64,000 nt of DNA from Candidatus Hodarchaeota archaeon (GCA_016839815.1 JAEOTM010000204.1:1-64000); one strand, 5' to 3'. Positions 8,716 through 52,887 are shown, counted from the first letter of the stretch. Numbers and translations: made by a program. Notes: generated from the sequence alone by a model not told the origin.

Positions 8716-10749
8716 ATGTCTGAGCTGACAGAGACAGAGAAAGAAAAGGCAAAAAAGTATTATCCTTTGCCAAAACTGGCAGAGAAAGCTCGTATTCAAA
8801 ATATGGACGCTTACTTCGAGAAATGGAAGTACTCAGTCGAGAATTTTGAAGAATTTTGGGCTGAAGAAGCGAAAATGATTGATTGGTTCACCCCTTATCA
8901 GAAAGTGTGGCAGGCTCCAACTGGAAATCAAGATGAATTCGTAGGAAAATGGTTTGTTGGGGGAAAACTAAATGTCACCTATAATTGTTTAGATCGTTGG
9001 ATAGAAAAGGGATATGGTGACGAAGTTGCACTCATCTGGATGGGAGAAGACGATACTGTAAAGAAATTTACCTATAAGTCATTAACAGAGCAAGTTAACA
9101 AGGCAGCTAATGCCTTGAAAGCATTAGGTGTTGAAAAAGGTGACAGGGTTTGTCTCTGGTTACCAATGATTGAACATCTCGCAATCGTGATGCTTGCTTG
9201 TGCTCGTATTGGTGCAATTCACTCGATCGTATTTGGAGGATTTTCCGCTGAATCTGTAAAAGATAGAATAGATGATTCAGAATGTAAAGTTCTCGTCGTT
9301 GCTGATGAAGTACGAAGAGCTGGTAAGAATAGACCAATGAAAGATAATTTAAAAGGTATTATTGATACCTGTGATTCAATTGAAAATGTAGCTGTGATTA
9401 AACTTACAGGTGGAGACGTTTACACATATGAAAAGGACGTTGATTTTCTAGCTTTAATGGAAGAACAATCTGCTGTCTGTGAAAGCGAACCCATGGATGC
9501 AGAAGATCCATTATTCATTCTTTATACTTCAGGAACCACTGGTAAGCCAAAAGGTGTTGTACATACGACTGCTGGTTATCTCGTTTTCGGAGTGTCGACC
9601 AACTACTATGTCTGGGATTATTCCTGCTTATTAGATCTCAAAGGCGATACATCTGCAAATCGAGACGTCTGGTATTGTACCGCAGACATCGGTTGGATAA
9701 CTGGTCATACCCAGATTATCTATTCACCACTTGCTCTTGGCTCTATTAGTGTAATGTATGAAGGAGTTCCCACTTGGCCCCATGGTGGTCGTTTCTGGGA
9801 AATTTGTGAGAAATTTGGAGTAACTCACTTTTATACTGCCCCAACAGCGATTCGTGCACTAATGAAATTAGGGGACGAAAATGTTACCAAATGGAATCTA
9901 GAAAAACTCAAGATGATTGGAACTGTTGGAGAAGTGTGCAATTGGCCTGAATGGAAATGGTACTGGGATATAGTCGGACAAGGCTCGAGTGGAGAAAAAC
10001 CCATTGGACGTCCCATCGTTGATAGCTACTGGCAAACTGAAACAGGATCTTACATGATGGTAAATCTTGGTTCGGTTACACCCATGAAACCTGGAAGTTG
10101 TACTTTCCCATTCCTTGGAATTAATCCCGTCTTATTAGATGAAGCAGGAGGAAAAATCGAGACTCCAAATACCCAAGCTTATTTTGCGTATGATAAACCA
10201 TGGCCAGGACTCATGCGTACAGTATGGGGTGATCATGAACGTTTTGTGAACACTTATCTAGCACAATTCCCAGGACACTACTTCACTGGCGATTATGCTC
10301 AAGTTGACGATGAAGGTTATTATTTCATACTTGGTCGATCTGATGATGTTATTAAAGTTTCAGGACATCGTCTGGGCTCTGCAGAAGTTGAAGCAGCAAT
10401 TAATTCACATCCAAAAGTTGCTGAAAGCGCTGTTATTCCTTATCCTCATCCTGTTAAGGGAGCAACAATCTTTGCGTATATTACATTAATGAATGACGAA
10501 GACGCAAGTGATGAAATGAAAAAGAATATTCAGAAACATGTACGGTCGGTAGCTGGTCCAGCTGTTTATCCTGAGATCATCATGTTCGCATCTGCTGTTC
10601 CAAAAACAAGATCAGGTAAGATAATGAGAAGAATCTTAAAAGCTGTGGCAGAACAAAGAGATATTGGTAATACAATGACCTTAGCCAACCCTGAAGTTGT
10701 TGAAGGATTAATCACTCGTCGTCAGATGATGGGCGAAATTAAGTTCTAA
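8716..10749 (+). CDS. acs: acetyl-CoA synthetase (AMP-forming)
   Basis: 'YTSGTTGKPKG', 'ADIGWITGH', 'YWQTETG', 'SGHRLGSAEVE', 'PKTRSGKIMRR'. Confidence 0.96.
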   Translation: MSELTETEKEKAKKYYPLPKLAEKARIQNMDAYFEKWKYSVENFEEFWAEEAKMIDWFTPYQKVWQAPTGNQDEFVGKWFVGGKLNVTYNCLDRWIEKGYGDEVALIWMGEDDTVKKFTYKSLTEQVNKAANALKALGVEKGDRVCLWLPMIEHLAIVMLACARIGAIHSIVFGGFSAESVKDRIDDSECKVLVVADEVRRAGKNRPMKDNLKGIIDTCDSIENVAVIKLTGGDVYTYEKDVDFLALMEEQSAVCESEPMDAEDPLFILYTSGTTGKPKGVVHTTAGYLVFGVSTNYYVWDYSCLLDLKGDTSANRDVWYCTADIGWITGHTQIIYSPLALGSISVMYEGVPTWPHGGRFWEICEKFGVTHFYTAPTAIRALMKLGDENVTKWNLEKLKMIGTVGEVCNWPEWKWYWDIVGQGSSGEKPIGRPIVDSYWQTETGSYMMVNLGSVTPMKPGSCTFPFLGINPVLLDEAGGKIETPNTQAYFAYDKPWPGLMRTVWGDHERFVNTYLAQFPGHYFTGDYAQVDDEGYYFILGRSDDVIKVSGHRLGSAEVEAAINSHPKVAESAVIPYPHPVKGATIFAYITLMNDEDASDEMKKNIQKHVRSVAGPAVYPEIIMFASAVPKTRSGKIMRRILKAVAEQRDIGNTMTLANPEVVEGLITRRQMMGEIKF

Positions 10750-10760
10750 ACTTAATCCCA

Positions 10761-10776
10761 TTTTTCTTTTTTTTTT
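10761..10776 (+). terminator. oligo-T terminator of acs
   Basis: TTTTTCTTTTTTTTTT 11 nt after the stop codon. Confidence 0.6.
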
Positions 10777-11038
10777 ACTTCAGGATTTCTAAAATTTCAA
10801 ATGGTTCAATATTAGATATCCGTAAAACTTTTGTAGTACTAGTTTGACCCGATTCTAGAACCACTTTAGTTTTAAAACGTTTCCGCATCAAGTTTATTAT
10901 AGTTTTATTGGCTTTGTTCTTTACTGGTGGATCTTTCACATATACAAAGAGTTCACCATCTACCAAGTGAATCAAATTAATGGATTGCCGTGTTTTTACT
11001 TGGATTGTGACCAATGTGTCTTTTCCTACTTGTCTCAT
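10775..11038 (-). CDS. DUF167 (UPF0235/YggU) protein
   Basis: 'VKDPPVKNKANKTII...SGQTSTTKVLRI' matches the DUF167 pattern; start overlaps the upstream stop. Confidence 0.85.
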   Translation of the reverse strand: MRQVGKDTLVTIQVKTRQSINLIHLVDGELFVYVKDPPVKNKANKTIINLMRKRFKTKVVLESGQTSTTKVLRISNIEPFEILEILK

Positions 11039-13005
11039 AGAGATTCCTTACAAAAAAGTCCTTGTTCAGTTATTGAGTCAAATTCGGAAAAAGGAATGAA
11101 TTTTAAAGCAAACTTTGATTCTATTTCCGCCATAGTATTCGGAAGCATGTTAAATTCTTCTCGCATTGGAAAGATGAAATTTAGATAATAAACTGCCAAG
11201 TTATTTGGCCATAAGCTTTCGTTTTCAGGAACTGCAAGAGCTAATGATATTCTCTTTCGAAAACGGTCAACATGTTGATGGGAATGTTTTCTTCCGACTT
11301 GTTGCACTAATTGATCTGCTGAAAGGGGGGAATACAGTACGAAGAGACGATTATCTTTAACTTTAAACCCATAGATAGTCCCAAAGCTAGTATCATTCTT
11401 ATAAAGAGATTTTCCGATTAGAAAACGTAAAGATTCTGATATCGAATGAAAATAGATTCCAATTTTTGCTCTGAGTTCTGTTTTTCTGTTAAATGCACAT
11501 GATGGAACTATAGAATAGTAGGCAATGGCAATTTCGTGGGGAGAGCGCAATATTCTTTCTTGAAAATTAACTTTCCATAAATTTTCAGGGGAAAAAACTT
11601 CACCTTCACCGACTTTCAACTTTTTTGCTAAATAAAATCGTAACTCAGCCAAATTTTGTTTACCTAATCCCTGTAAAAATATGTCCAATAAACTAGAGGG
11701 AGGAATTAAACGCTCAATTATCAAAGAGTGACCCAACGGAGTTTTTTCCATCACTCCTGCAATTTTACCGAAATGAGTTCCTGCAATTCCCTTGATATCT
11801 TCACCGATTGGAGTGCTAAAAGCTGGGGAGGGACTAGGAGACGGTATCCATGCACGCAGGGTAATCTTTTGTAAATTTGCTTCATTAACCGTAATTGAAT
11901 TATTTGCTGAAATTCGAACCTTGTCTTCATTATAAAACCATATGTTAGCAATTTTGGGTTTAACTGGAGTAAAATCTTCAGATAGAAGGCTAAGCCATTC
12001 ATTGAAGAAAGATGGTTGAAATGTCAGCTGATGAGGTATCTTCAAAGTATCAGAAATCTTATTTTGCATTTCTTCTGTTGAAATGGAATTTAGATCTATT
12101 CCCAGATCATGCAACAAGGAAGAGAATTTGGATTTCATTCGGGTCAAGGTAAGAGATTCTTCTAGAACGATGGGAAGAAAGTTAATCTGGTTGACTTGAA
12201 TTGGTGCCCTAATTAATCCGATCGGTTTTTCTTCTAAATTATATGCTATTAATCCAACAGCATTCCATAAGTTAGCTTCATCGGTGGGAACAGGAGGAGA
12301 GTAATCATTGGATTGCACATCTGGTACAGAGCTTGAAGGAAATATTGGTTTGTGACTAATAATATCAGGTAAAGGTTTAATAATTTCTTCTAATTGGAAT
12401 TTTACTTGATTCTGGTCTGAAATGGGGGAGATAAACGCTTTTAGAATATCCGATTCAATGATTTCACTAACATTGAGGGTTTCAGGAGATTTTTGACCTC
12501 CTTGCTGGGATTGATGTTTTATCCAAATTTCAAGAAACGAATCTTGAAGGTTCTTATCTACCTTAAAATCGCTTCCGGTATATTCAGTTACAAAGAATTC
12601 GTGAGAATTGAGGTTGGAATCCTTTATAATCGAAGTAAGGTAATTTAACCTATCCGTGATAAAAGAATTAAGTAAATCTCTTCGTACTCCGTATGATTGC
12701 TTTAATTCGACAAGAGAAGAAATTTCATCCCGTGCATCGTTATCTGATAATGTTTTCCCTTCCCAACCAGTAATCACCGTTTCAATTTTACTTTCAATAT
12801 CTTCCATTTTTGAGATTAATTCTTTTAAGAACTTATTTTGTTCAACGGCTTGGAGTATAGCAAGTAAAGGGGGAGGAGGAGAAGACTTTTGTTTTTTTGC
12901 TAGTTTTTCCATTCTTTCAAGCTGTGATAAGAGTAAGCTTTCTTCTATCAACTTATCTGTCCGAAGTCTCATTAGAAGTTTGCGTAAATTATTCTCCTTA
13001 TCCAA
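11035..13005 (-). CDS. coiled-coil protein with three PRC-barrel-like repeats (CdvA-like, tentative)
   Basis: N-terminal coiled coil plus three repeats beginning 'AVGLIAYNLEEKPIGLI', 'PIGEDIKGIAGTHFGKI', 'LIGKSLYKNDTSFGTI'. Confidence 0.55.
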   Translation of the reverse strand: MDKENNLRKLLMRLRTDKLIEESLLLSQLERMEKLAKKQKSSPPPPLLAILQAVEQNKFLKELISKMEDIESKIETVITGWEGKTLSDNDARDEISSLVELKQSYGVRRDLLNSFITDRLNYLTSIIKDSNLNSHEFFVTEYTGSDFKVDKNLQDSFLEIWIKHQSQQGGQKSPETLNVSEIIESDILKAFISPISDQNQVKFQLEEIIKPLPDIISHKPIFPSSSVPDVQSNDYSPPVPTDEANLWNAVGLIAYNLEEKPIGLIRAPIQVNQINFLPIVLEESLTLTRMKSKFSSLLHDLGIDLNSISTEEMQNKISDTLKIPHQLTFQPSFFNEWLSLLSEDFTPVKPKIANIWFYNEDKVRISANNSITVNEANLQKITLRAWIPSPSPSPAFSTPIGEDIKGIAGTHFGKIAGVMEKTPLGHSLIIERLIPPSSLLDIFLQGLGKQNLAELRFYLAKKLKVGEGEVFSPENLWKVNFQERILRSPHEIAIAYYSIVPSCAFNRKTELRAKIGIYFHSISESLRFLIGKSLYKNDTSFGTIYGFKVKDNRLFVLYSPLSADQLVQQVGRKHSHQHVDRFRKRISLALAVPENESLWPNNLAVYYLNFIFPMREEFNMLPNTMAEIESKFALKFIPFSEFDSITEQGLFCKESL

Positions 13006-26250: not shown

Positions 26251-26417
26251 GGCATCATAGCTCAGTTAGGATAAAGATTTGATCTTTATCTCTGAAGAGG
26301 TAGAGCGTTCGGCTGTTAATTAATATCTTTCATTCAGAAGGAGACACAGACACCGAGTGGTCGCAGGTTCAAGTGTTAAACACGTTTAGTCTTTAACTGA
26401 AAATCCTGCTGGTGCCG
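26251..26417 (+). tRNA. tRNA-Asn(GTT) with three introns: 26268-26297 (17/17a), 26319-26351 (37/38), 26374-26403 (59/60)
   Basis: Removing three BHB-flanked segments (central helices TCAG/CTGA, CTGT/ACAG, TTCA/TGAA) leaves a normal 74-nt cloverleaf. Confidence 0.92.
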
Positions 26418-33076: not shown

Positions 33077-35212
33077 TTAGTCGAAAGTAGGTTGATAATA
33101 GTTTTCAGCATAACTTTCTCTAAGACGGATCTGAACAGGCTTATTTTTGAGCATTTCAAAGATAGAAGAACTTGAGGAATTTAGCTCGAATTGGTCAGTT
33201 TTTATTAGTGTCACATTCTTATTAACTGATATCAAACACCGTCGTTCATCAGGTTTTGCTTTTAATAGGGAACTCATTTGATCATAAGTCTCTTTTGTAA
33301 CTCCTAATAAATTCGCAATTTTATATGGATCAAATTTCGAATAAAACATTGTAAGAACACCCGCATTCGTCAGCATGGGCAGATCTATTATTGGGTCTGT
33401 TCCTATAAAAACCATTGACACATCATATGCTCGTAATGTCCATGGTCCTCGACCAATTATTGATTTAGGGGTTGAATGCTTAAAGGGTGTTTGTGGTAAA
33501 AGCTTGTTAATTTCGTCCAGGATAATTACATTCTGAGGTAGTTTTTCCTCCTTGAAAGGAGGCCGAAATTTTCGAATGTAATAGTAAAGATACTGGAATA
33601 TTACTTCCAGGAGTAATTGACGGCCTCTAATATCCTCCATTGCTTCAAATGATGATAAATCCAAGATGATATTATGAGAAAGAAATTGAGAAATATCAAA
33701 AGTACTAGAAGTTACGGTAAAGCATCTTCCTGTATTCCCAAATAATAATTTTGTAATACGATTGATAGTGCCCGCAGAGGTGTTTTCTAAATATGCACCT
33801 TTAAGACCAAGGGCATTAGGTTTATTTAACCATTGCAGAAATAGTTTGAAGTCACCTTTTTCTTTGATAGTCTGAATTGTTGCTAATTGGATTAACCGTC
33901 TCATCTGAGGAGATAAAGAATCAGTATCATCAACTATATTCTCAAGTAATGAAACCACAAATTGAATATGATCTTCTGGGGATATTAATGGTTCACCCCG
34001 GGGATCTAATGGAATGTCAAAGATATTGATTCCCCAAGGAAACGAATTAGATCCAAGTTTAATATAGATAAAATCCTGACAAAATGTATGTACGGGGTAT
34101 ATATATTCACCTTTAGGATCGATAATTAGGAATTTCACTTGATTTTGATGAAATTCTTGAATTAAATTGAAGATAAATCTACTTTTCCCTTCTCCTGTCA
34201 TCCCGAATACCCCCATGTGTCGTGATAAATCTTTCCCTGAAAGAATCATAGGAGAAGATGATGTTTTTCCACTCATAATTGGTATACCAATTTTAATAGT
34301 TTCATCTGTATCAAGATGAGATGCTGGAGAAGATACTCTGTATTTTTCCTTATGAGGAACGATTTGATAGCCAAAAAGCGAGTACTGATTGGTAGGAAAT
34401 GATAGAAATCTCATGAGTGTAAAACCATCTGTGAGAAGAGATGGTTGAATTGAACGGTTTCTAACATGTGCTTTAAATCGATTGAAAGATCGTAAAAAAG
34501 CAGGATATTTTCGTGTCTTGATTCCATGGGCCTTTAAAAAGACAGCGACTCGTTCCAACTTAGTCTTAAGCTGCTCCTCTGTACGTTCGACTGCTAAAAA
34601 TCGAATCGCTAGATTAAAACAGCCAGATTCTTCCATAAGATTCATACTATAAGGTTGAAAGCGATGTTCAACTTTTCCTTCGTGAATATTAAATCTGACT
34701 TGGTTTCTATTGTTATTCTCTTCTTGGGAACGGAATTCGTTAGGAATTTTTTCAGAGATGAAATTAATCTGAAAAAGGGCAAAAGTGGGATCTTCAGTAA
34801 TGATTTCAAGTAATCCATTCATAAAATTTACGTGTGTTGTAGAGGGGATGGAATCTAACTCCAGACCGAGTAAACCTCCACTGTGAAGACACGGTTCTTC
34901 AGGATCGAGAAAAAATTTTGATTCAATCATACTCAAAAGCTTGGGTATCGGATCTCTACTTGGTTCCAAAAAATCTGAATGGAGTCCAAGAGAAGTTACA
35001 AATTGTTGAAGTGTCGCTATTGCAGATTGGGTATTCTCTTTGAAAAAACGTCTCTTAGGTTTAACATGCATGCATATGTGAACCGTTTTGGGTTCAAATA
35101 TTGCATATTCTAAAGTAAAAGTATGATGTACGTTTCTTAGAATATTAATGCAAGAATGATCAGTTTTTTCAGGTACGAATTCGAAATGAAATGAGGTAGG
35201 CCTAGCTTGCAA
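33077..35212 (-). CDS. HerA/FtsK/VirB4-superfamily ATPase (DUF87)
   Basis: 'RHMGVFGMTGEGKS', 'IIDPKGEY', Walker B 'IILDEIN'. Confidence 0.88.
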   Translation of the reverse strand: MQARPTSFHFEFVPEKTDHSCINILRNVHHTFTLEYAIFEPKTVHICMHVKPKRRFFKENTQSAIATLQQFVTSLGLHSDFLEPSRDPIPKLLSMIESKFFLDPEEPCLHSGGLLGLELDSIPSTTHVNFMNGLLEIITEDPTFALFQINFISEKIPNEFRSQEENNNRNQVRFNIHEGKVEHRFQPYSMNLMEESGCFNLAIRFLAVERTEEQLKTKLERVAVFLKAHGIKTRKYPAFLRSFNRFKAHVRNRSIQPSLLTDGFTLMRFLSFPTNQYSLFGYQIVPHKEKYRVSSPASHLDTDETIKIGIPIMSGKTSSSPMILSGKDLSRHMGVFGMTGEGKSRFIFNLIQEFHQNQVKFLIIDPKGEYIYPVHTFCQDFIYIKLGSNSFPWGINIFDIPLDPRGEPLISPEDHIQFVVSLLENIVDDTDSLSPQMRRLIQLATIQTIKEKGDFKLFLQWLNKPNALGLKGAYLENTSAGTINRITKLLFGNTGRCFTVTSSTFDISQFLSHNIILDLSSFEAMEDIRGRQLLLEVIFQYLYYYIRKFRPPFKEEKLPQNVIILDEINKLLPQTPFKHSTPKSIIGRGPWTLRAYDVSMVFIGTDPIIDLPMLTNAGVLTMFYSKFDPYKIANLLGVTKETYDQMSSLLKAKPDERRCLISVNKNVTLIKTDQFELNSSSSSIFEMLKNKPVQIRLRESYAENYYQPTFD

Positions 35213-35244: not shown

Positions 35245-35280
35245 TTATTTGTTCGAGGGTTCTGTTCTTGGTGGCATCAT
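35245..35280 (-). CDS. candidate 11-aa micro-ORF MMPPRTEPSNK
   Basis: Manual translation; TATA-like CTTATAA 22 nt upstream; same length and ends as the micro-ORF at 48452-48487. Confidence 0.35.
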   Translation of the reverse strand: MMPPRTEPSNK

Positions 35281-46852: not shown

Positions 46853-48382
46853 ATGAGTAAGATAGAGAATTTGAAGAAAAGCCTCAACACTATCTTACTC
46901 CAATTTCCCAAGTTTGTTGAAAAATATTCACTAGAGGATCAGCAATTAATAGCTGAGTTTTTAAATGTAATAAAATTTTATGAGGAGGCAGATAACCGTC
47001 GAAATGTACTATTAGCACGCTTTACGGAATTTATCACTAAAACGAGAAATAGAAAACAATACTACGACTTACCCTTTCTCGGATTAACTGTAGTAATCGC
47101 AGAGAACGCAGTATATCACTTAAGTATTGCACGATTCTACCCCTTGGAGTTTTACAACTCACTTTTACAGCAGCTTCGGCCCCTTTTTCAACTTATTAGG
47201 CGAATAGAACCATTAATTAGCTTGAAGTATGAGGAAACACTCCAGGCGACAAGAAGTCTGTACTCACCATTATCCTCTGATGAATATCGACTGTTACAAT
47301 ATACATATTCTCTTCTAAAATCAGAAGGATTAACATCTTTAAATTCTAATTATATTAAAACAGAATTTGGAAAAAAAGAAGATATTCCCAGACGATTAAA
47401 AAAGGAAATAGAAATTTCTCGTTTTTATACATTAATTGAGGGCAGATGGTGGATTCATTTTCATTTTCCAGCCTTTGGATTAAGTCAAGTAGTATTTCAT
47501 TTTGAATTAATTGATAACACATCATTAATTGATCTAATTGACCTTAATAATCCGAATAACACAGTTTTAACCTATAGTAACGTTTTTCAAGTTTTGAATT
47601 CAAACAGTGAATATATTGGTATTTTCACTATTCCCAATAACGATATTAATCTTCTTAAGGATCTTTTTCAACGGTATGAACAGAGTAGATTAGTCAAACG
47701 AAAAGAATTAACTGTAATCAGTCATCGACTAAGGAGTACATCTTTTGATTATTATAAGGAGGAAAAGGGGTGGAGGAACTTATCAGCTAACAAAAAACAA
47801 AGTATTAAACAAGTATTGAGTTCTACAGATCCTGAAGTATATAATTTGGAGCAGAGTTCCTTTAATATTCCAAATTTTAACAATTCAAATTGGTCATTCT
47901 CTGAACACCAATCTCCTGAAAAAATTATCAAATTTTTTTGTACAACACCTTCTGAATTCGCTTATACAGGTCTTCCATTAAACATACCTTCATCAGACTA
48001 TCCTAACTCTCTTAATAGGGATGACATTGAGTTAATACATTATTTTTATTCACAAAAGGTATTAAGTATAGGTTTTATTCCTTGGCGTTTAATAGATGAT
48101 TATTCGTTAAATATCTATGTTGTAAAGGTTCCAGCTGTGCCATTAGCGAAGTTAGAGCACTTCTTAAGTGTTATTCCTTATGCCGAGATTTATTTTGCTC
48201 CAGATAGTTACTATCTGTGGACCGTTCTCCCACCCACTATAATCAGCTGGATAAAAAATACTCTTAAATGGTCTATCATTCCTGTACAACGAATTCATGT
48301 AAGACAGGAATTAACATCAGAGTGGTTTGATACGAAATCACTATTATGGACTAGACCTGAAATTTTGGGACGAAATAAGTAA
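46853..48382 (+). CDS. large putative regulator with Lrp/AsnC-like segments
   Basis: 'PLSSDEYRLLQ...FHFPAFGLSQVVFHF' and a second copy 'LNRDDIELIH...'; TATA 29 nt upstream. Confidence 0.55.
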   Translation: MSKIENLKKSLNTILLQFPKFVEKYSLEDQQLIAEFLNVIKFYEEADNRRNVLLARFTEFITKTRNRKQYYDLPFLGLTVVIAENAVYHLSIARFYPLEFYNSLLQQLRPLFQLIRRIEPLISLKYEETLQATRSLYSPLSSDEYRLLQYTYSLLKSEGLTSLNSNYIKTEFGKKEDIPRRLKKEIEISRFYTLIEGRWWIHFHFPAFGLSQVVFHFELIDNTSLIDLIDLNNPNNTVLTYSNVFQVLNSNSEYIGIFTIPNNDINLLKDLFQRYEQSRLVKRKELTVISHRLRSTSFDYYKEEKGWRNLSANKKQSIKQVLSSTDPEVYNLEQSSFNIPNFNNSNWSFSEHQSPEKIIKFFCTTPSEFAYTGLPLNIPSSDYPNSLNRDDIELIHYFYSQKVLSIGFIPWRLIDDYSLNIYVVKVPAVPLAKLEHFLSVIPYAEIYFAPDSYYLWTVLPPTIISWIKNTLKWSIIPVQRIHVRQELTSEWFDTKSLLWTRPEILGRNK

Positions 48383-48451
48383 GATTAAAGATGTGTTCTG
48401 TAGAAAAAAAAAGGAGGAAATATAAGGAATAGTATCCTTAAGTTATCACAA

Positions 48452-48487
48452 TTATTTACCGTTTCCACGGTCTCCTGGGGGCATCAT
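48452..48487 (-). CDS. candidate 11-aa micro-ORF MMPPGDRGNGK
   Basis: GC-rich 36 nt in an AT-rich gap; SD GAGGT 7 nt upstream, CTTAAAAA at 48521-48528, hairpin 48423-48440 and T9 tract 48404-48412 downstream. Confidence 0.5.
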   Translation of the reverse strand: MMPPGDRGNGK

Positions 48488-48650
48488 CTTAAAGACCTCA
48501 ATTCTTAGATTTGAAAGAGCTTTTTAAGAACCTTAAAATCCACCCAGTGTCACTAAATATTAAAGAGATAAAATAAAAATAATTAATACACTTCTGCAAA
48601 CTGTTTATGAAAATAAATATTAAACTGAAGAACAGGATAACTTACTCTGG

Positions 48651-50747
48651 ATGAAAGGGATAATGAACTCACAACAAAAGGGAGAAAATCAAACTGAGGA
48701 AATCCAGATGGTTGAGCGTATGATTAGAGAGGGGGAATATAACGACGCTCTATCACTAATCAATACAGCCATAGATAAGTTACCGAGTAATTATCGTCTA
48801 GAAGATGAAATTCAGTATAAATTACCGAAAACAGAAATTTTAATACATCAAGGTAAGTATAAGAAAGCTTTAGAGATAATAAAACCTTTAAATGCTCAAA
48901 TTATAAATGTAGAAAATTGTATTTTAAAAATAAGGATTATCACAGTTTATGCTGATGTATTATACTATTTAGGAACTTTCACAGACGGATTGGAAGTTCT
49001 GTCAAATGGGGAGAAGTTATTGGAGGAAGCATTGTCATTTACCAATCAGAATTGTTCGAAAGAACAAGCACATTTATTGAAAGTGAAAGGAAAGATTTTA
49101 GAGAAACTGGGAGAGGAGGAAGAGTCATTAGCTCATTATCAGAAGAGTCTAGCATTATTTCAGGAGATTAAAGATCAAATAGGAATTTCTTCAATTTTGA
49201 ATAATATAGGCATAATTTATCGTAAACAAGGGGCATTAAACCAAGCATTGGAATATTATCAACGAAGTTTGGCCATTAGAAAGCGATTGGATAATAAACT
49301 TGACATTGTTGCCACTCTTAATAATATTGGGATTATTTATATGTTCCAAGGTGACCTGAATAGGGCTTTAGCTCATTATCAGGATGCACTGACTATCCTA
49401 GAGGAAATTGGGCATAAACAATATATGGCCGCAATCAACAACAATATAGGAAATATTTTTTTCGATAAAGGGGAGCTAGATACTGCTTTCAGTCATTATC
49501 AAACAAGTTTAACCTTATGGGGAGAATTAGGCCATCAACAATATAATGCTTATGGAATTAACCACCTTGGTAAAATCCATAGACGGAAAGGTGATCTTGA
49601 AGAGGCATTAGTCCATTATCAACAGGCACTATTATTATTAAATGAAATCGGGAATAATCTGGATATTTCAATCACCTTATTCGATCTTATTTCGACTGCA
49701 TTAGACAAGAATGATGATCAGCTTGCACAGGAATATTTACTGGCTTTAAAACAGATAAAAGAGCAAGAAAAAAATAGAGTAATCGATCAAAGATATCGAG
49801 TGGCAAAAGCTCTACAATTGAAAAATGATGAACGATCTCGAAAGAGAACTAAGGCCGAAGAATTACTGGTTCAGGTTATTAATGAAGAAATTATTGATCA
49901 TGAAATAACTGAATATGCTATGCTTAATCTGTGCGAATTATATATCGATAATCTAAAACGTACAAATGATAGAACCATTTTAATGAAGGTACAGAAGTTA
50001 GTTTTAAAATTATCAGAGGTAGCAAAAGATCAACATTCACATTGGTTAATAGCAGAGGCCTATTTTCTAAAAGCGAAACTATTCCTAATTGATTTAAATC
50101 TCGATAAAGCCCGCGAATTCTTAGGACAAGCGCAGATTATAGCTGAAGAACGAGGAATGAAAAATCTTGCAATGAAGATATCATATGAGCATGATTTACT
50201 ACTCCATGATCTACCCAAGTATGCTGAACTTAGCGAAAAAGACGCCCCCTTAGCCGAACGATTGGAATTCGCAAAATTAGATCATCTTATCAAACGATTA
50301 ACACATATGCGATTATTAGAACTTCCAGCGCTGAAAGAAGAAGAACCAGTATTAGTTTTGGTAATGGCGGAAAACGGATTAAGCTTATTTTCAAAACCAT
50401 TTCTTCCAGAAGGAGAAATCAACCCTCAATTATTTGGAGGTTTTCTTTCTGCTATCCACTCCTTTTCAGAAGCGGTTTTTTCGAGAACATTGGACCGTGC
50501 CCTCTTAGGTGAATATACCCTTGTCATGAAAACAGAAGAACCTCTACTAATGTGTTATATCTGTAAAGGACAGGCATTCTCTGCTCTTCAGAAGCTTAAT
50601 CAGTTTATCCAACATACCACTAAATCTGATAAGTACTGGAATGCTCTATTGCAAGGGAGTCAAACAGGAAAAACCCTTGATAACTCAGACTATGCGTCTC
50701 TTGAACATTTGGCCAGCTCTATCTTTTCACAAACAAGAGAAGAGTAA
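48651..50747 (+). CDS. TPR-repeat protein with C-terminal longin-like domain
   Basis: Repeats 'LNNIGIIY...G.L..AL..YQ.SL'; C-terminal 'GLSLFSKPF..PQLFGGFLSAIHSFS'. Confidence 0.88.
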   Translation: MKGIMNSQQKGENQTEEIQMVERMIREGEYNDALSLINTAIDKLPSNYRLEDEIQYKLPKTEILIHQGKYKKALEIIKPLNAQIINVENCILKIRIITVYADVLYYLGTFTDGLEVLSNGEKLLEEALSFTNQNCSKEQAHLLKVKGKILEKLGEEEESLAHYQKSLALFQEIKDQIGISSILNNIGIIYRKQGALNQALEYYQRSLAIRKRLDNKLDIVATLNNIGIIYMFQGDLNRALAHYQDALTILEEIGHKQYMAAINNNIGNIFFDKGELDTAFSHYQTSLTLWGELGHQQYNAYGINHLGKIHRRKGDLEEALVHYQQALLLLNEIGNNLDISITLFDLISTALDKNDDQLAQEYLLALKQIKEQEKNRVIDQRYRVAKALQLKNDERSRKRTKAEELLVQVINEEIIDHEITEYAMLNLCELYIDNLKRTNDRTILMKVQKLVLKLSEVAKDQHSHWLIAEAYFLKAKLFLIDLNLDKAREFLGQAQIIAEERGMKNLAMKISYEHDLLLHDLPKYAELSEKDAPLAERLEFAKLDHLIKRLTHMRLLELPALKEEEPVLVLVMAENGLSLFSKPFLPEGEINPQLFGGFLSAIHSFSEAVFSRTLDRALLGEYTLVMKTEEPLLMCYICKGQAFSALQKLNQFIQHTTKSDKYWNALLQGSQTGKTLDNSDYASLEHLASSIFSQTREE

Positions 50748-50776: not shown

Positions 50777-51565
50777 TCAATCAGAAGAACAGGAGAAAAT
50801 TGAATAATTTCTTTTGTGAGAAAACCCTACTTTTTGATAAAGGCGTATAGCAGGAAAATTATCTTCAGCCACAAATAATGAAACTATCTCTTTCTTTTTC
50901 AGGATCTCTTTTCCAATAGTAGAGACTAAGTTCTTACCAATCGACTGGCCGCGAAATTCTGGCAGGACAAGGATATTCCCTAAATGTGCTAATTCGGGAG
51001 TTTCAAAATGAGTGCCACCACATGCAATGATAAATCCCTTTTTCTTCTTAAAGAAGTAGAATTGGCTTTCTAGCTGAATTGGATTCCAAGGAAAGGTATT
51101 ATTTTTTTTATAAAATGCATTTATGTGGGTTAAATCTGCGGTAGAAGCATGAGTAAATGAAATATCTGCCTCATGAAAGAGTGCGCAAGTACGATTGGTT
51201 ACCATACAAAATTCCGCACTTTGATCATTGAGAGAGAAATTCTGGCGTAGTAAAGTTGCATCGATGGTTGAGGAAACCAATACAAACTGTCTAGGAAGGA
51301 TTGAACGCAACCTGGATAGGATAAACTCCATTATTGCATCGGATGTGTTTAATATTACGACAGAGGGAACTTGAAACCCTTTAAACACCGTAAAAAAGGA
51401 GAGAAGATTATTTCCCTCAAAAACACCAAAAATATCAGATAAATCTAAGCAAGGAGGAAATAAATCACCAATCAACACAAGATTTTCGTATAGGTCTTTT
51501 TTGGCATATTGATAACAACGATTGAGTAAATCTTGATTGTCTTGCGAAATTGGATGGATTTTCAT
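50777..51565 (-). CDS. GNAT acetyltransferase
   Basis: 'VLPEFRGQSIG', 'NFPAIRLYQKVGF'. Confidence 0.88.
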   Translation of the reverse strand: MKIHPISQDNQDLLNRCYQYAKKDLYENLVLIGDLFPPCLDLSDIFGVFEGNNLLSFFTVFKGFQVPSVVILNTSDAIMEFILSRLRSILPRQFVLVSSTIDATLLRQNFSLNDQSAEFCMVTNRTCALFHEADISFTHASTADLTHINAFYKKNNTFPWNPIQLESQFYFFKKKKGFIIACGGTHFETPELAHLGNILVLPEFRGQSIGKNLVSTIGKEILKKKEIVSLFVAEDNFPAIRLYQKVGFSHKRNYSIFSCSSD

Positions 51566-51582
51566 GAAGAAAATTCAGCACC

Positions 51583-52083
51583 TTATATTTGGTAAACCAT
51601 CTGATAATGAGTTTCAGTTTCATCTTTTGTGACGAAACCCAAATTTTTATACAGATTAAAGGCTTTATGATTCACTTTGAGGACCTGCAACATGATATTT
51701 TTGTTTTCATTTTTTCCTCGTTCGATAATCTCCTTAATTAGCTTTGATCCAATTCCTTTATTCTGAAATATTGGAAGAATTTCTATCACACTAAGAACGA
51801 GTGTATCTGATCTCTGATCAACCTCGATACATCCAATATCCTTCCCAGATATTTGAATAATCTTATACAATTCAGGATTCACAGTCTGTTGATGACGTGT
51901 ATATTGAAAAGCATCATCCCAACCCCAAATTTGGGCTACATACTCTTTAAGTGTTGCTTTCTTGAGAACAAACAGAAACTCTAAGTCCTCTGGGATCCCC
52001 GAACGAAGTGTGATATTTTCCAGCATAAATAGTTGAAAAGAATTAGGGGTTTTTTCTCTTTCTTTCTCACTCAAATGATTCAT
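51583..52083 (-). CDS. GNAT acetyltransferase
   Basis: 'ILPIFQNKGIGS', 'AFNLYKNLGF'. Confidence 0.88.
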   Translation of the reverse strand: MNHLSEKEREKTPNSFQLFMLENITLRSGIPEDLEFLFVLKKATLKEYVAQIWGWDDAFQYTRHQQTVNPELYKIIQISGKDIGCIEVDQRSDTLVLSVIEILPIFQNKGIGSKLIKEIIERGKNENKNIMLQVLKVNHKAFNLYKNLGFVTKDETETHYQMVYQI

Positions 52084-52104
52084 CTATAAACCAGTATATT
52101 CATC

Positions 52105-52887
52105 TCAAAGTAGAATAATAAGCTTACCATGCCAACCGATATTTAACTGATTTTCTCCCTGATAAGTATTCACATGGCCAAATTCAACTCTTATTTGGGT
52201 ACCAACTTGCACTTGGGAAATCTGCTCATTCCATAAAACAAGAGTAATATTACCAGTAGTGTCTCTAAGTTCAGCATGAGCTACTGATAATCGCTTACCG
52301 GTCGATCGAGAGATTACTTCCTTTGGAGATGAGATAGAATGAACAACCCCTTCCACATTAATATCTTTCAATCCCTCTGTTAGGTCATGTATCTTTTGAA
52401 GTATAAATGGAGAAGAAGTTGTCAGTGCTTTTTGATACCAGATTCCTCGCCAATCGAAAGGTCCGACCTCCCAGCCGACCTGGACAAAACCGTGTTTTTT
52501 GTAGAAGTTCTGAGTTCTCTTATTCCAGTCTGGGGTCCCTAAAGTCCAGAACTGGACCTGAGGATATCTTTTCCAGAGCAATGTCATAGCACGAGAGGCT
52601 AATCCCTTGTTATGGAAAGGAGGATCAATAAATATTCGTTCAAGAACACGATGATGTTTTCCCCGAGCTGTTACTAATAAACCTCCCACAATGTTTTCAC
52701 CCAACATAATTTTATAATAATCAAGAAAGCCCATAAAGCGTTCTTGAAAGGAGGTAGAGTCGTAACCAGGAGGACCCCCCAATCCAGGGGCTCCTACTTC
52801 AGTATCACTATCAAACGCTCGCTTGGAGATTGCAGTTAGTTCCATAACATCTTTTTTTTCGGCAGCTTCGAGTCTAATGATATCCAT
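52105..52887 (-). CDS. GNAT acetyltransferase fused to an SSB/RPA-type OB fold
   Basis: 'IDPPFHNKGLA', 'FYKKHGF' then 'AELRDTTGNITLVLWNEQ...VNTYQGENQLNIG'. Confidence 0.85.
   Translation of the reverse strand: MDIIRLEAAEKKDVMELTAISKRAFDSDTEVGAPGLGGPPGYDSTSFQERFMGFLDYYKIMLGENIVGGLLVTARGKHHRVLERIFIDPPFHNKGLASRAMTLLWKRYPQVQFWTLGTPDWNKRTQNFYKKHGFVQVGWEVGPFDWRGIWYQKALTTSSPFILQKIHDLTEGLKDINVEGVVHSISSPKEVISRSTGKRLSVAHAELRDTTGNITLVLWNEQISQVQVGTQIRVEFGHVNTYQGENQLNIGWHGKLIILL

Follow-up and report, generated by a model that had tools for sequence, protein, structure and literature searches.

The 64,000-nucleotide (nt) stretch analyzed here (Candidatus Hodarchaeota archaeon, GCA_016839815.1, JAEOTM010000204.1:1-64000; the window) is contig C196 of the archaeal metagenome-assembled genome G000 (4.24 Mb, 206 contigs). 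A close homologue of one of its products, the 509-amino-acid (aa) protein P0001, carries a Hodarchaeales annotation; this order of Asgard archaea is the one nearest to eukaryotes in current phylogenies. Between the gene for P0001 and that for a TPR-longin protein, P0002, the minus strand carries an open reading frame (ORF) of only 11 codons (Table 1). Comparison with related genomes indicates that this micro-ORF is a true protein-coding gene, equipped with a promoter-like box, a ribosome-binding site and an oligo-T terminator of its own, and that about 55 copies of such micro-genes, all with an M(x)PP start, lie tail to tail with a gene for a double Lrp/AsnC-like protein of ~510 residues in one Hodarchaeales genus.

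Table 1. Features of the minus-strand unit, its neighbours and other parts of the window
Feature	Position (nt)	Strand	Remarks
Putative promoter element	48520..48535	-	AAGGTTC (G-containing; GGG-containing and like a B recognition element, BRE, in relatives), then TATA-like TTAAAAAG; from sequence
TATA-like box	48528..48520	-	CTTAAAAAG
Shine-Dalgarno (SD)-like motif	48499..48495	-	GAGGT, 7 nt before the ATG at 48487
Micro-ORF	48487..48452	-	11 codons + TAA; ATG ATG CCC CCA GGA GAC CGT GGA AAC GGT AAA TAA = MMPPGDRGNGK
Small hairpin	48439..48424	-	AAGGA-N6-TCCTT in the 3' untranslated stretch; not conserved in relatives
T9 run	48412..48404	-	After a pyrimidine tract (TTTCCTCC); probable archaeal oligo-T terminator
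Partner gene, P0001	46853..48382	+	ORF, 509 aa; predicted helical bundle (residues 1-135) and two Lrp/AsnC-like modules (142-509)
TPR-longin gene, P0002	48651-50747	+	698 aa; TPR repeats, C-terminal ~135-residue longin fold
Second conserved micro-ORF	35280..35245	-	11 codons, MMPPRTEPSNK; TATA-like box ~30 nt upstream; no SD
DUF87/HerA/VirB4-like ATPase gene	33077-35212	-	711 aa; second micro-ORF lies 32 nt upstream
tRNA match	26251-26417	+	167 nt over the full 71-position model; not called by ARAGORN
Three consecutive GNAT acetyltransferase genes	50777-52887	-	Third fused to an OB-fold (tRNA_anti-codon/Ssb-like) domain
Tandem helix-turn-helix (HTH) protein	63219-64676		485 aa; not a P0001 family member by hidden Markov model; no M(x)PP ORF downstream

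The original prediction had described a full minus-strand unit consisting of a TATA-like box, a GAGGT motif, the 11-codon ORF, a hairpin and a T9 run, and all of these elements are present on that strand. The TATA-like box is centred ~37 nt 5' of the first ATG of the micro-ORF. Genome-wide, GAGGT peaks 6-9 nt before the ATG of long ORFs, and across 2,344 such ORFs of this genome GAGGT, GGAGG and GGTGA cluster at distances of 5-10 nt from the ATG, so that the spacing of the micro-ORF falls within the genome's own peak. The end of the T9 run is separated by 21 nt from the stop codon (48380-48382) of the 509-aa gene. Since both flanking genes are on the plus strand, the micro-gene is convergent with the 509-aa gene and divergent from the TPR gene, and after the T9 run only the 3' end of the convergent gene follows; the orientation and the lack of a downstream gene to lead are thus as the prediction had held. 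The folding energy of the micro-gene is ordinary (z -0.35). A scan for bacterial-type intrinsic terminators found none at the micro-gene, and Rfam and tRNA scans returned nothing at its locus. The idea that the spacer is a repeat or a mobile element was rejected, as the spacer is single-copy in the window genome; the micro-ORF is likewise the only one of its type there. Within the window alone, the micro-ORF is not beyond chance, and the 360 nt from 48340 to 48700 hold nine ORFs of at least eight codons, the micro-ORF among them. It is conservation among relatives that lifts it above chance.

Conservation of the micro-gene and linkage to the P0001 family

To investigate the distribution of the micro-gene, 22 genomes of the genus were compared, namely that of the window and 21 others; it should be noted that these relatives are kin and do not constitute independent samples. 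Scoring both strands within 300 nt of the 3' ends of 73 P0001 family genes for M(x)PP ORFs of 9-14 codons revealed a convergent one at 54 of the 73 genes and none (0/73) on the strand of the gene itself. Looser rules yielded a catalogue of 57 micro-ORFs. The micro-genes typically lie 40-160 nt from the 3' end of the ~510-aa partner gene. A search with the pattern ATGATGCCNCCNNNNGA produced 18 matches in the genus, and the reversed control produced none; 14 of these matches closely follow the 3' end of a homologue of the 509-aa gene in convergent orientation, and the remaining four are inside or antisense to long ORFs. When the 268-nt spacer was compared with the genus by blastn, only the micro-gene matched (74-77 % nucleotide identity), at loci whose partner proteins are just 31-36 % identical to P0001. 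The original prediction had proposed that the micro-gene belongs with one of its two neighbours, and these data assign it to the 509-aa Lrp-like family. Of the two neighbours near whose homologues it had suggested a search for short ORFs, the 509-aa protein gave a positive result, and no homologue of the TPR protein adjoins a micro-gene in the relatives searched.

The P0001 family is multi-copy and is present in all 21 of the other genus genomes, as compared with 0-1 of 61 other genomes of the class (one weak match). A phylum-wide search with the pattern (301 genomes) returned sparse matches outside the genus and no evidence for the module there. Distant family members from metagenome assemblies (L105 and L106) also have a micro-ORF, encoding MPPSTPPNPPSGGC and MMPPDTGGPTPK. 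The peptides are specific to individual clades of the protein tree, on whose deepest branches the micro-gene already occurs; at two loci the micro-ORF persists beside remnants of a family gene. The orthologous cassette L095 in genome G018 (contig C28) is flanked by Arf/Rag-like small GTPase genes at 9937-11616 and 12052-12954, and an APH-type kinase gene occurs a few kb upstream of the cassette both there and in G000, which indicates partial synteny. This pattern indicates a two-gene cassette whose members are duplicated, diverge and are maintained jointly; the TPR-longin gene is not part of it. No micro-ORF is called in the public annotations of the relatives' loci examined, and our literature search found no description of such a micro-gene/Lrp-like pair.

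Family genes with their micro-genes also occur in arrays, with five copies in 42 kb in G017 and three in 43 kb in G009 (array loci G017:C126, G009:C1:2825838-2868097, G004:C9 and G005:C150; members L046-L049, L017, L066, L068, L044 and L077). The window genome has two further paralogues, at G000:C12:32917-34416 (L022) and G000:C101:107974-109491 (L023), in clades with shorter internal branches. These paralogues lack a micro-gene and may be core orthologues that work without the peptide.

Several features of the 57 catalogued copies point to translation. After the Pro-Pro codons, GC content at the three codon positions is 70/62/20 %, compared with ~31 % in the flanks, and 50 copies have 7-8 codons after Pro-Pro, where a geometric expectation is ~8 %. 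The first two positions of both Pro codons are invariant and the third varies. The closest orthologue, in G018:C28, reads CCC CCT GGC GAT CGC GGT AAT GGC GGT AAA and differs from the G000 micro-ORF by 7 synonymous changes, no non-synonymous change and one in-frame Gly codon, and the partner proteins of the two genomes are 50 % identical. About 50 of the 57 micro-ORFs are preceded by an SD-like motif at the proper spacing. Likewise, most loci carry GGGTG or GGGAG followed by TTAATAAG, TTTATAAA, ATTATATT or TTTAAAAG, and the TATA centre in related loci is usually 35-38 nt 5' of the start codon, which predicts a leader of ~10-13 nt beginning at or near the SD-like motif. A run of at least five T, often of 7-10, is found within 120 nt past the stop codon in 56 of the 57 micro-genes, mostly at 30-65 nt. 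There was no signal of conserved RNA structure, the folds of 56 related transcripts averaging z -0.5.

The encoded peptides have 10-13 codons (one has 16) and share the M(x)PP start, after which come 7-8 residues rich in Gly, Pro and Asp. The consensus can be written as M(x)PP, x, D/G/E, G/P, G/P, x, G/P, x, with a frequent K at the end; K is the last residue in 17 of the 57 copies, L in 6 and N in 6. Other family peptides are, for instance, MPPKDPGGIN and VSPPPGGIGPDQ. In composition (G 27 %, P 20 %, D 9 %) the peptides contain nearly no hydrophobic residues and no hydrophobic stretch, and with a whole product of 10-13 (once 16) hydrophilic residues there is no signal sequence, in agreement with the original prediction. 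The tail past Pro-Pro changes fast, even where the partner proteins are 60-80 % identical, and retains its composition and length.

The second conserved micro-ORF of the window resembles the one studied here in its MMPP start, its length and its K-stop end, and has no Lrp-like gene beside it. It looks leaderless. By blastn its spacer matches only over the 36 nt of the micro-ORF itself, in G018:C28 (94 %) and in G013:C10 and G002:C50 (84 %). The peptides in these three genomes are MMPPRTEPSNK or MMPPRTEPTNK, with changes that are mostly synonymous (including Arg AGA to CGT), and the surrounding spacer does not align. No MMPP ORF was found upstream of a DUF87 gene near family member L096.

The partner protein and the TPR-longin neighbour

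The AlphaFold2 (AF2) model of P0001, built from a 66-sequence alignment, has a mean predicted local distance difference test score (pLDDT) of 91.6 and a predicted template modelling score (pTM) of 0.86. The model indicates that residues 142-509 are a tandem Lrp/AsnC-like protein at the level of the fold, each module consisting of an HTH and a ferredoxin-like domain. Over this range the best match among solved structures is NirDL (4czc_A; Z 12.2, root-mean-square deviation 5.1, 266 residues aligned), and the next unrelated structure follows at Z 7.9. Foldseek returned 4ch7 (E 5.6e-5), and matches in the ESM Atlas (template modelling score 0.51-0.69, the best 0.66-0.69) are large archaeal proteins from HTH_AsnC-type/HTH_24 clusters in which up to 99 % of members carry HTH_AsnC-type. 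The Lrp-like part of the label in the original prediction therefore holds for the fold, and the role as a regulator is putative.

P0001 resembles Lrp/AsnC proteins and NirDL/AhbAB in this arrangement, and, like NirDL, it unites in a single chain two modules that each combine an HTH with a ferredoxin-like (RAM-type) domain. It differs from them by its extra N-terminal helical bundle, by having no sequence match to HTH_AsnC-type/HTH_24, AsnC_trans_reg (RAM) or NirD models and, with regard to NirDLGH and AhbAB, by the absence of haem-synthesis genes near it. P0001 has no Pfam match at E<=0.01 and no NCBIfam match, no Lrp/AsnC-type model occurs among the weak matches (E<=1) of 66 family members, and a search of PDB sequences with the family profile was negative at E<=10. 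PADLOC models of anti-phage defence gave 0 families at E<=0.1 for three members, and a scan of the genome contigs with P0001 confirmed no relative. The profile matches 193 clusters among 1.84 billion representative proteins. The only invariant residues of the family are E127, Y301 and W499. The neighbours of family loci include an APH kinase, GNAT acetyltransferases, a TPR protein, Arf-like GTPases, a peptidase and an MFS transporter. In a sample of only 20 loci, the upstream region of the partner gene and the micro-gene promoter showed no excess of shared locus-specific motifs that might mark a common operator, the longest common word averaging 8.35 compared with 8.08 for mismatched loci.

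On the other side of the micro-gene, P0002 was confirmed at fold level as the TPR-longin protein that had been predicted, with TPR repeats and a tail that matches synbindin (Z 13.2) and the longin domain of VAMP7 (Z 13.1). Its paralogue family is very large, single genomes of the class having as many as 17 strong matches. No HTH was found in P0002 itself. Among the 22 relatives, no P0002 homologue adjoins a family gene or a micro-gene, and the gene beyond the micro-gene varies by locus, being an Arf-like GTPase gene in G018 and an unnamed 792-aa gene elsewhere.

Elsewhere in the window, the extra length of the tRNA match implies a long insert, possibly an intron.

Proposed mechanism and alternative explanations

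The reading that we tentatively favour, at slightly below even odds (about 0.45), is that the peptide acts in the cytoplasm, as a partner or ligand of the Lrp-like protein encoded beside it. We prefer it because the linkage is one-to-one, the peptides are clade-specific, the amino-acid constraint extends over the whole tail and the fold of the partner is one that binds ligands; the RAM domains of Lrp/AsnC proteins bind small ligands. A tail of steady composition and length but quickly changing sequence is also what one would expect of paired specificities. The unprocessed peptide would stay in the cytoplasm and serve as a specific ligand, effector or antagonist of the adjacent protein, most plausibly at its Lrp-type ligand-binding or winged HTH modules, and each paralogue would carry its own private peptide. 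In addition, the mRNA of the large gene would run antisense across the micro-gene, providing reciprocal control of the pair at the RNA level. No run of at least five T is present on the strand of the large gene before the micro-ORF in 42 of 56 loci, and at the locus studied here the first T run on the plus strand is T5 at 48521-48525, the complement of the TATA box of the micro-gene, which suggests that the transcript of the large gene probably overlaps the micro-gene. A fuller model would have the gene-encoded, unprocessed deca- to trideca-peptides act as private intracellular ligands of an expanded set of tandem Lrp/AsnC-like transcription factors, with the Pro-Pro start coupling output to aIF5A/polyamine status and convergent antisense transcription making each pair a switch; as a whole we consider this model unlikely.

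Several findings weigh against a peptide that is recognized by its neighbour. The solved structure nearest to P0001 is that of an enzyme and not of a regulator. Three clades of the protein family have no micro-gene, among them both other paralogues of the window genome, so the protein can work without it. Neighbouring genes are expected to diversify jointly simply because they are inherited together. Between nearest-neighbour pairs picked on the partner protein there are 81 non-synonymous versus 31 synonymous codon changes in the tail (counts on pairs picked by peptide identity were set aside as circular and replaced by these), and a compositional requirement would explain such fast change no less well than specific recognition. 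Furthermore, the rare codon CCC occupies the first Pro position in 68 % of copies compared with 16 % genome-wide, and the constrained Pro-Pro close to the start, together with this codon, argues for translation kinetics rather than recognition of the peptide.

These codon data, with the threefold enrichment of GGC in the micro-ORFs, are also consistent with a Pro-Pro translational sensor acting in cis, in which the state of the ribosome on the micro-ORF would set the life or length of a short RNA, this RNA would tune the neighbour as an antisense to the 3' untranslated end of the Lrp-like mRNA, and the released peptide would have no role. Met-(x)-Pro-Pro directly after initiation depends strongly on aIF5A and Pro-tRNA, and the start-proximal Pro-Pro are the sole invariant residues of peptides whose tails diverge fast. 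The probable overlap with the transcript of the large gene would suit such a sensor, as would the leader-like position of the second conserved MMPP micro-ORF upstream of a same-strand DUF87/HerA-like ATPase gene. One study includes a description of polyproline motifs in bacterial leader peptides and EF-P affecting transcription-translation coupling (PMC5021804). However, no gene follows on the strand of the micro-gene, a strong T run is present at 56 of 57 loci, and at 30-65 nt past the stop codon this run is beyond the reach of masking by a terminating ribosome. There is no conserved RNA structure for a ribosome to toggle, a stall at codons 2-4 leaves the constraint on the composition and length of the whole tail unexplained, and the divergence of the G018 orthologue is purely synonymous. 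We regard the sensor as less probable than a peptide partner, but as a serious alternative and the strongest of those considered. A much smaller share of our confidence goes to the possibility that the 510-aa protein serves as an enzyme or scaffold in the manner of the siroheme decarboxylases derived from Lrp, binding the peptide through a winged-helix module as a precursor or substrate and modifying it or building a small product from it. NirDL, the best solved match (Z 12.2), is an enzyme, no member matches HTH_AsnC-type models by sequence, RiPP (ribosomally synthesized and post-translationally modified peptide) recognition elements bind peptides through a winged-helix module, and precursors and their enzymes are typically encoded by strictly paired genes, one for the peptide and one for the protein. 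Nevertheless, the pair has no further conserved neighbour with a role in biosynthesis, export or immunity, 10-13 residues are too few for a leader plus a core, no modifiable residue is conserved besides Pro-Pro, and no catalytic motif was identified, the family having just the three invariant residues.

The remaining alternatives carry little weight. A conserved non-coding antisense RNA with an incidental ORF would account for a transcription unit that is short and self-contained, with a probable overlap with the 3' untranslated region of its neighbour, but the three-base GC periodicity, the conserved start codon and SD-like motif, the narrow range of ORF lengths, the variation of the Pro codons at the third position only and the absence of a conserved fold make it very improbable. 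More doubtful still is an RRNPP-like pair in which the peptide is the ligand of the divergent TPR-longin protein, an analogy on which the original prediction had drawn. The TPR protein is adjacent and divergent, its repeats are confirmed, and the TPR domains of RRNPP receptors bind peptides. In the relatives searched, however, homologues of P0002 were never found beside homologues of the 509-aa protein or micro-genes, and this lack of synteny contradicts the analogy; moreover, the gene on that side differs between loci, P0002 ends in a longin fold and no HTH was found in it, and the peptide has no export signal. Almost no credence is left for a chance ORF in an AT-rich spacer, which would agree with the nine short ORFs in 360 nt and with a length of 11 codons near chance expectation, and which is refuted by conservation (linkage, pattern search and codon-position GC).

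Comparison with known systems and significance

Among known systems, the prgQ/PrgX pair of Enterococcus faecalis pCF10 has convergent, mutually antisense RNAs that overlap, and its short RNA is both the mRNA of the peptide and a regulator (PMC3181467). The likeness lies in a short peptide-coding transcript convergent with a larger gene, the overlap being in our case predicted from sequence only. There are also clear differences. PrgX is a receptor of the RRNPP type, as opposed to the tandem Lrp/AsnC-like fold described here; iCF10 is made from a longer precursor that is exported, processed and re-imported, whereas the present peptides have 10-13 residues and no export signal; the pCF10 overlap involves the 5' ends of both operons and here would involve the 3' end of the large gene; and pCF10 is a bacterial plasmid, in contrast to an archaeal chromosome.

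In the Rgg/SHP group III systems of streptococci, a tiny peptide gene is convergent with, and just downstream of, the gene for its cognate cytoplasmic regulator, and there are many paralogous pairs with differing peptides. Both traits are shared by the micro-gene and its partner. SHPs are hydrophobic, exported and cleaved, and the Rgg receptor is an RRNPP protein of the TPR type; in the present pair we found none of hydrophobicity, export, cleavage or a TPR-type receptor. Likewise, with regard to RRNPP systems in general, the peptide gene does not accompany homologues of a TPR receptor, the product bears no sign of an exported pro-peptide, and P0002 combines its TPR with a longin tail and no HTH. 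To our knowledge, the ligands of the Lrp/AsnC fold are amino acids or tetrapyrroles and never a gene-encoded peptide.

Pro-rich leader peptides and other regulatory ORFs that depend on polyproline and EF-P/eIF5A, such as MgtL, MgtP and AZIN1 uCC, are similar in being tiny ORFs with consecutive Pro codons near the start. The micro-gene differs from leader-peptide attenuators in having no same-strand gene downstream and a T-run terminator of its own, a layout repeated at 56 of 57 loci. The 7-codon precursor gene of microcin C, mccA, is another of the smallest translated genes, with its own SD and a short transcript that ends at a terminator; the C-terminal Asn of MccA is adenylated by MccB, whereas only 6 of 57 tails in the present family end in Asn and no MccB-like gene is adjacent.

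At 10-13 codons, these micro-genes would count as some of the smallest protein-coding genes known to be conserved in archaea. They escape gene callers, and for an ORF of this size the coding evidence is unusually clean, so that the family is well suited for testing methods of micro-gene discovery. That the micro-gene is paired with an expanded, lineage-specific Lrp/AsnC-like family suggests that one Hodarchaeales genus has a regulatory or recognition module of its own. If the micro-ORF is a sensor of Pro-Pro stalling, it would be an archaeal counterpart of the eIF5A/polyamine-sensing ORFs. If the peptide is a ligand, the pair would represent a new receptor-peptide class, and private peptide ligands of this kind, if true, would constitute a class of peptide-receptor signalling without bacterial or eukaryotic counterpart.

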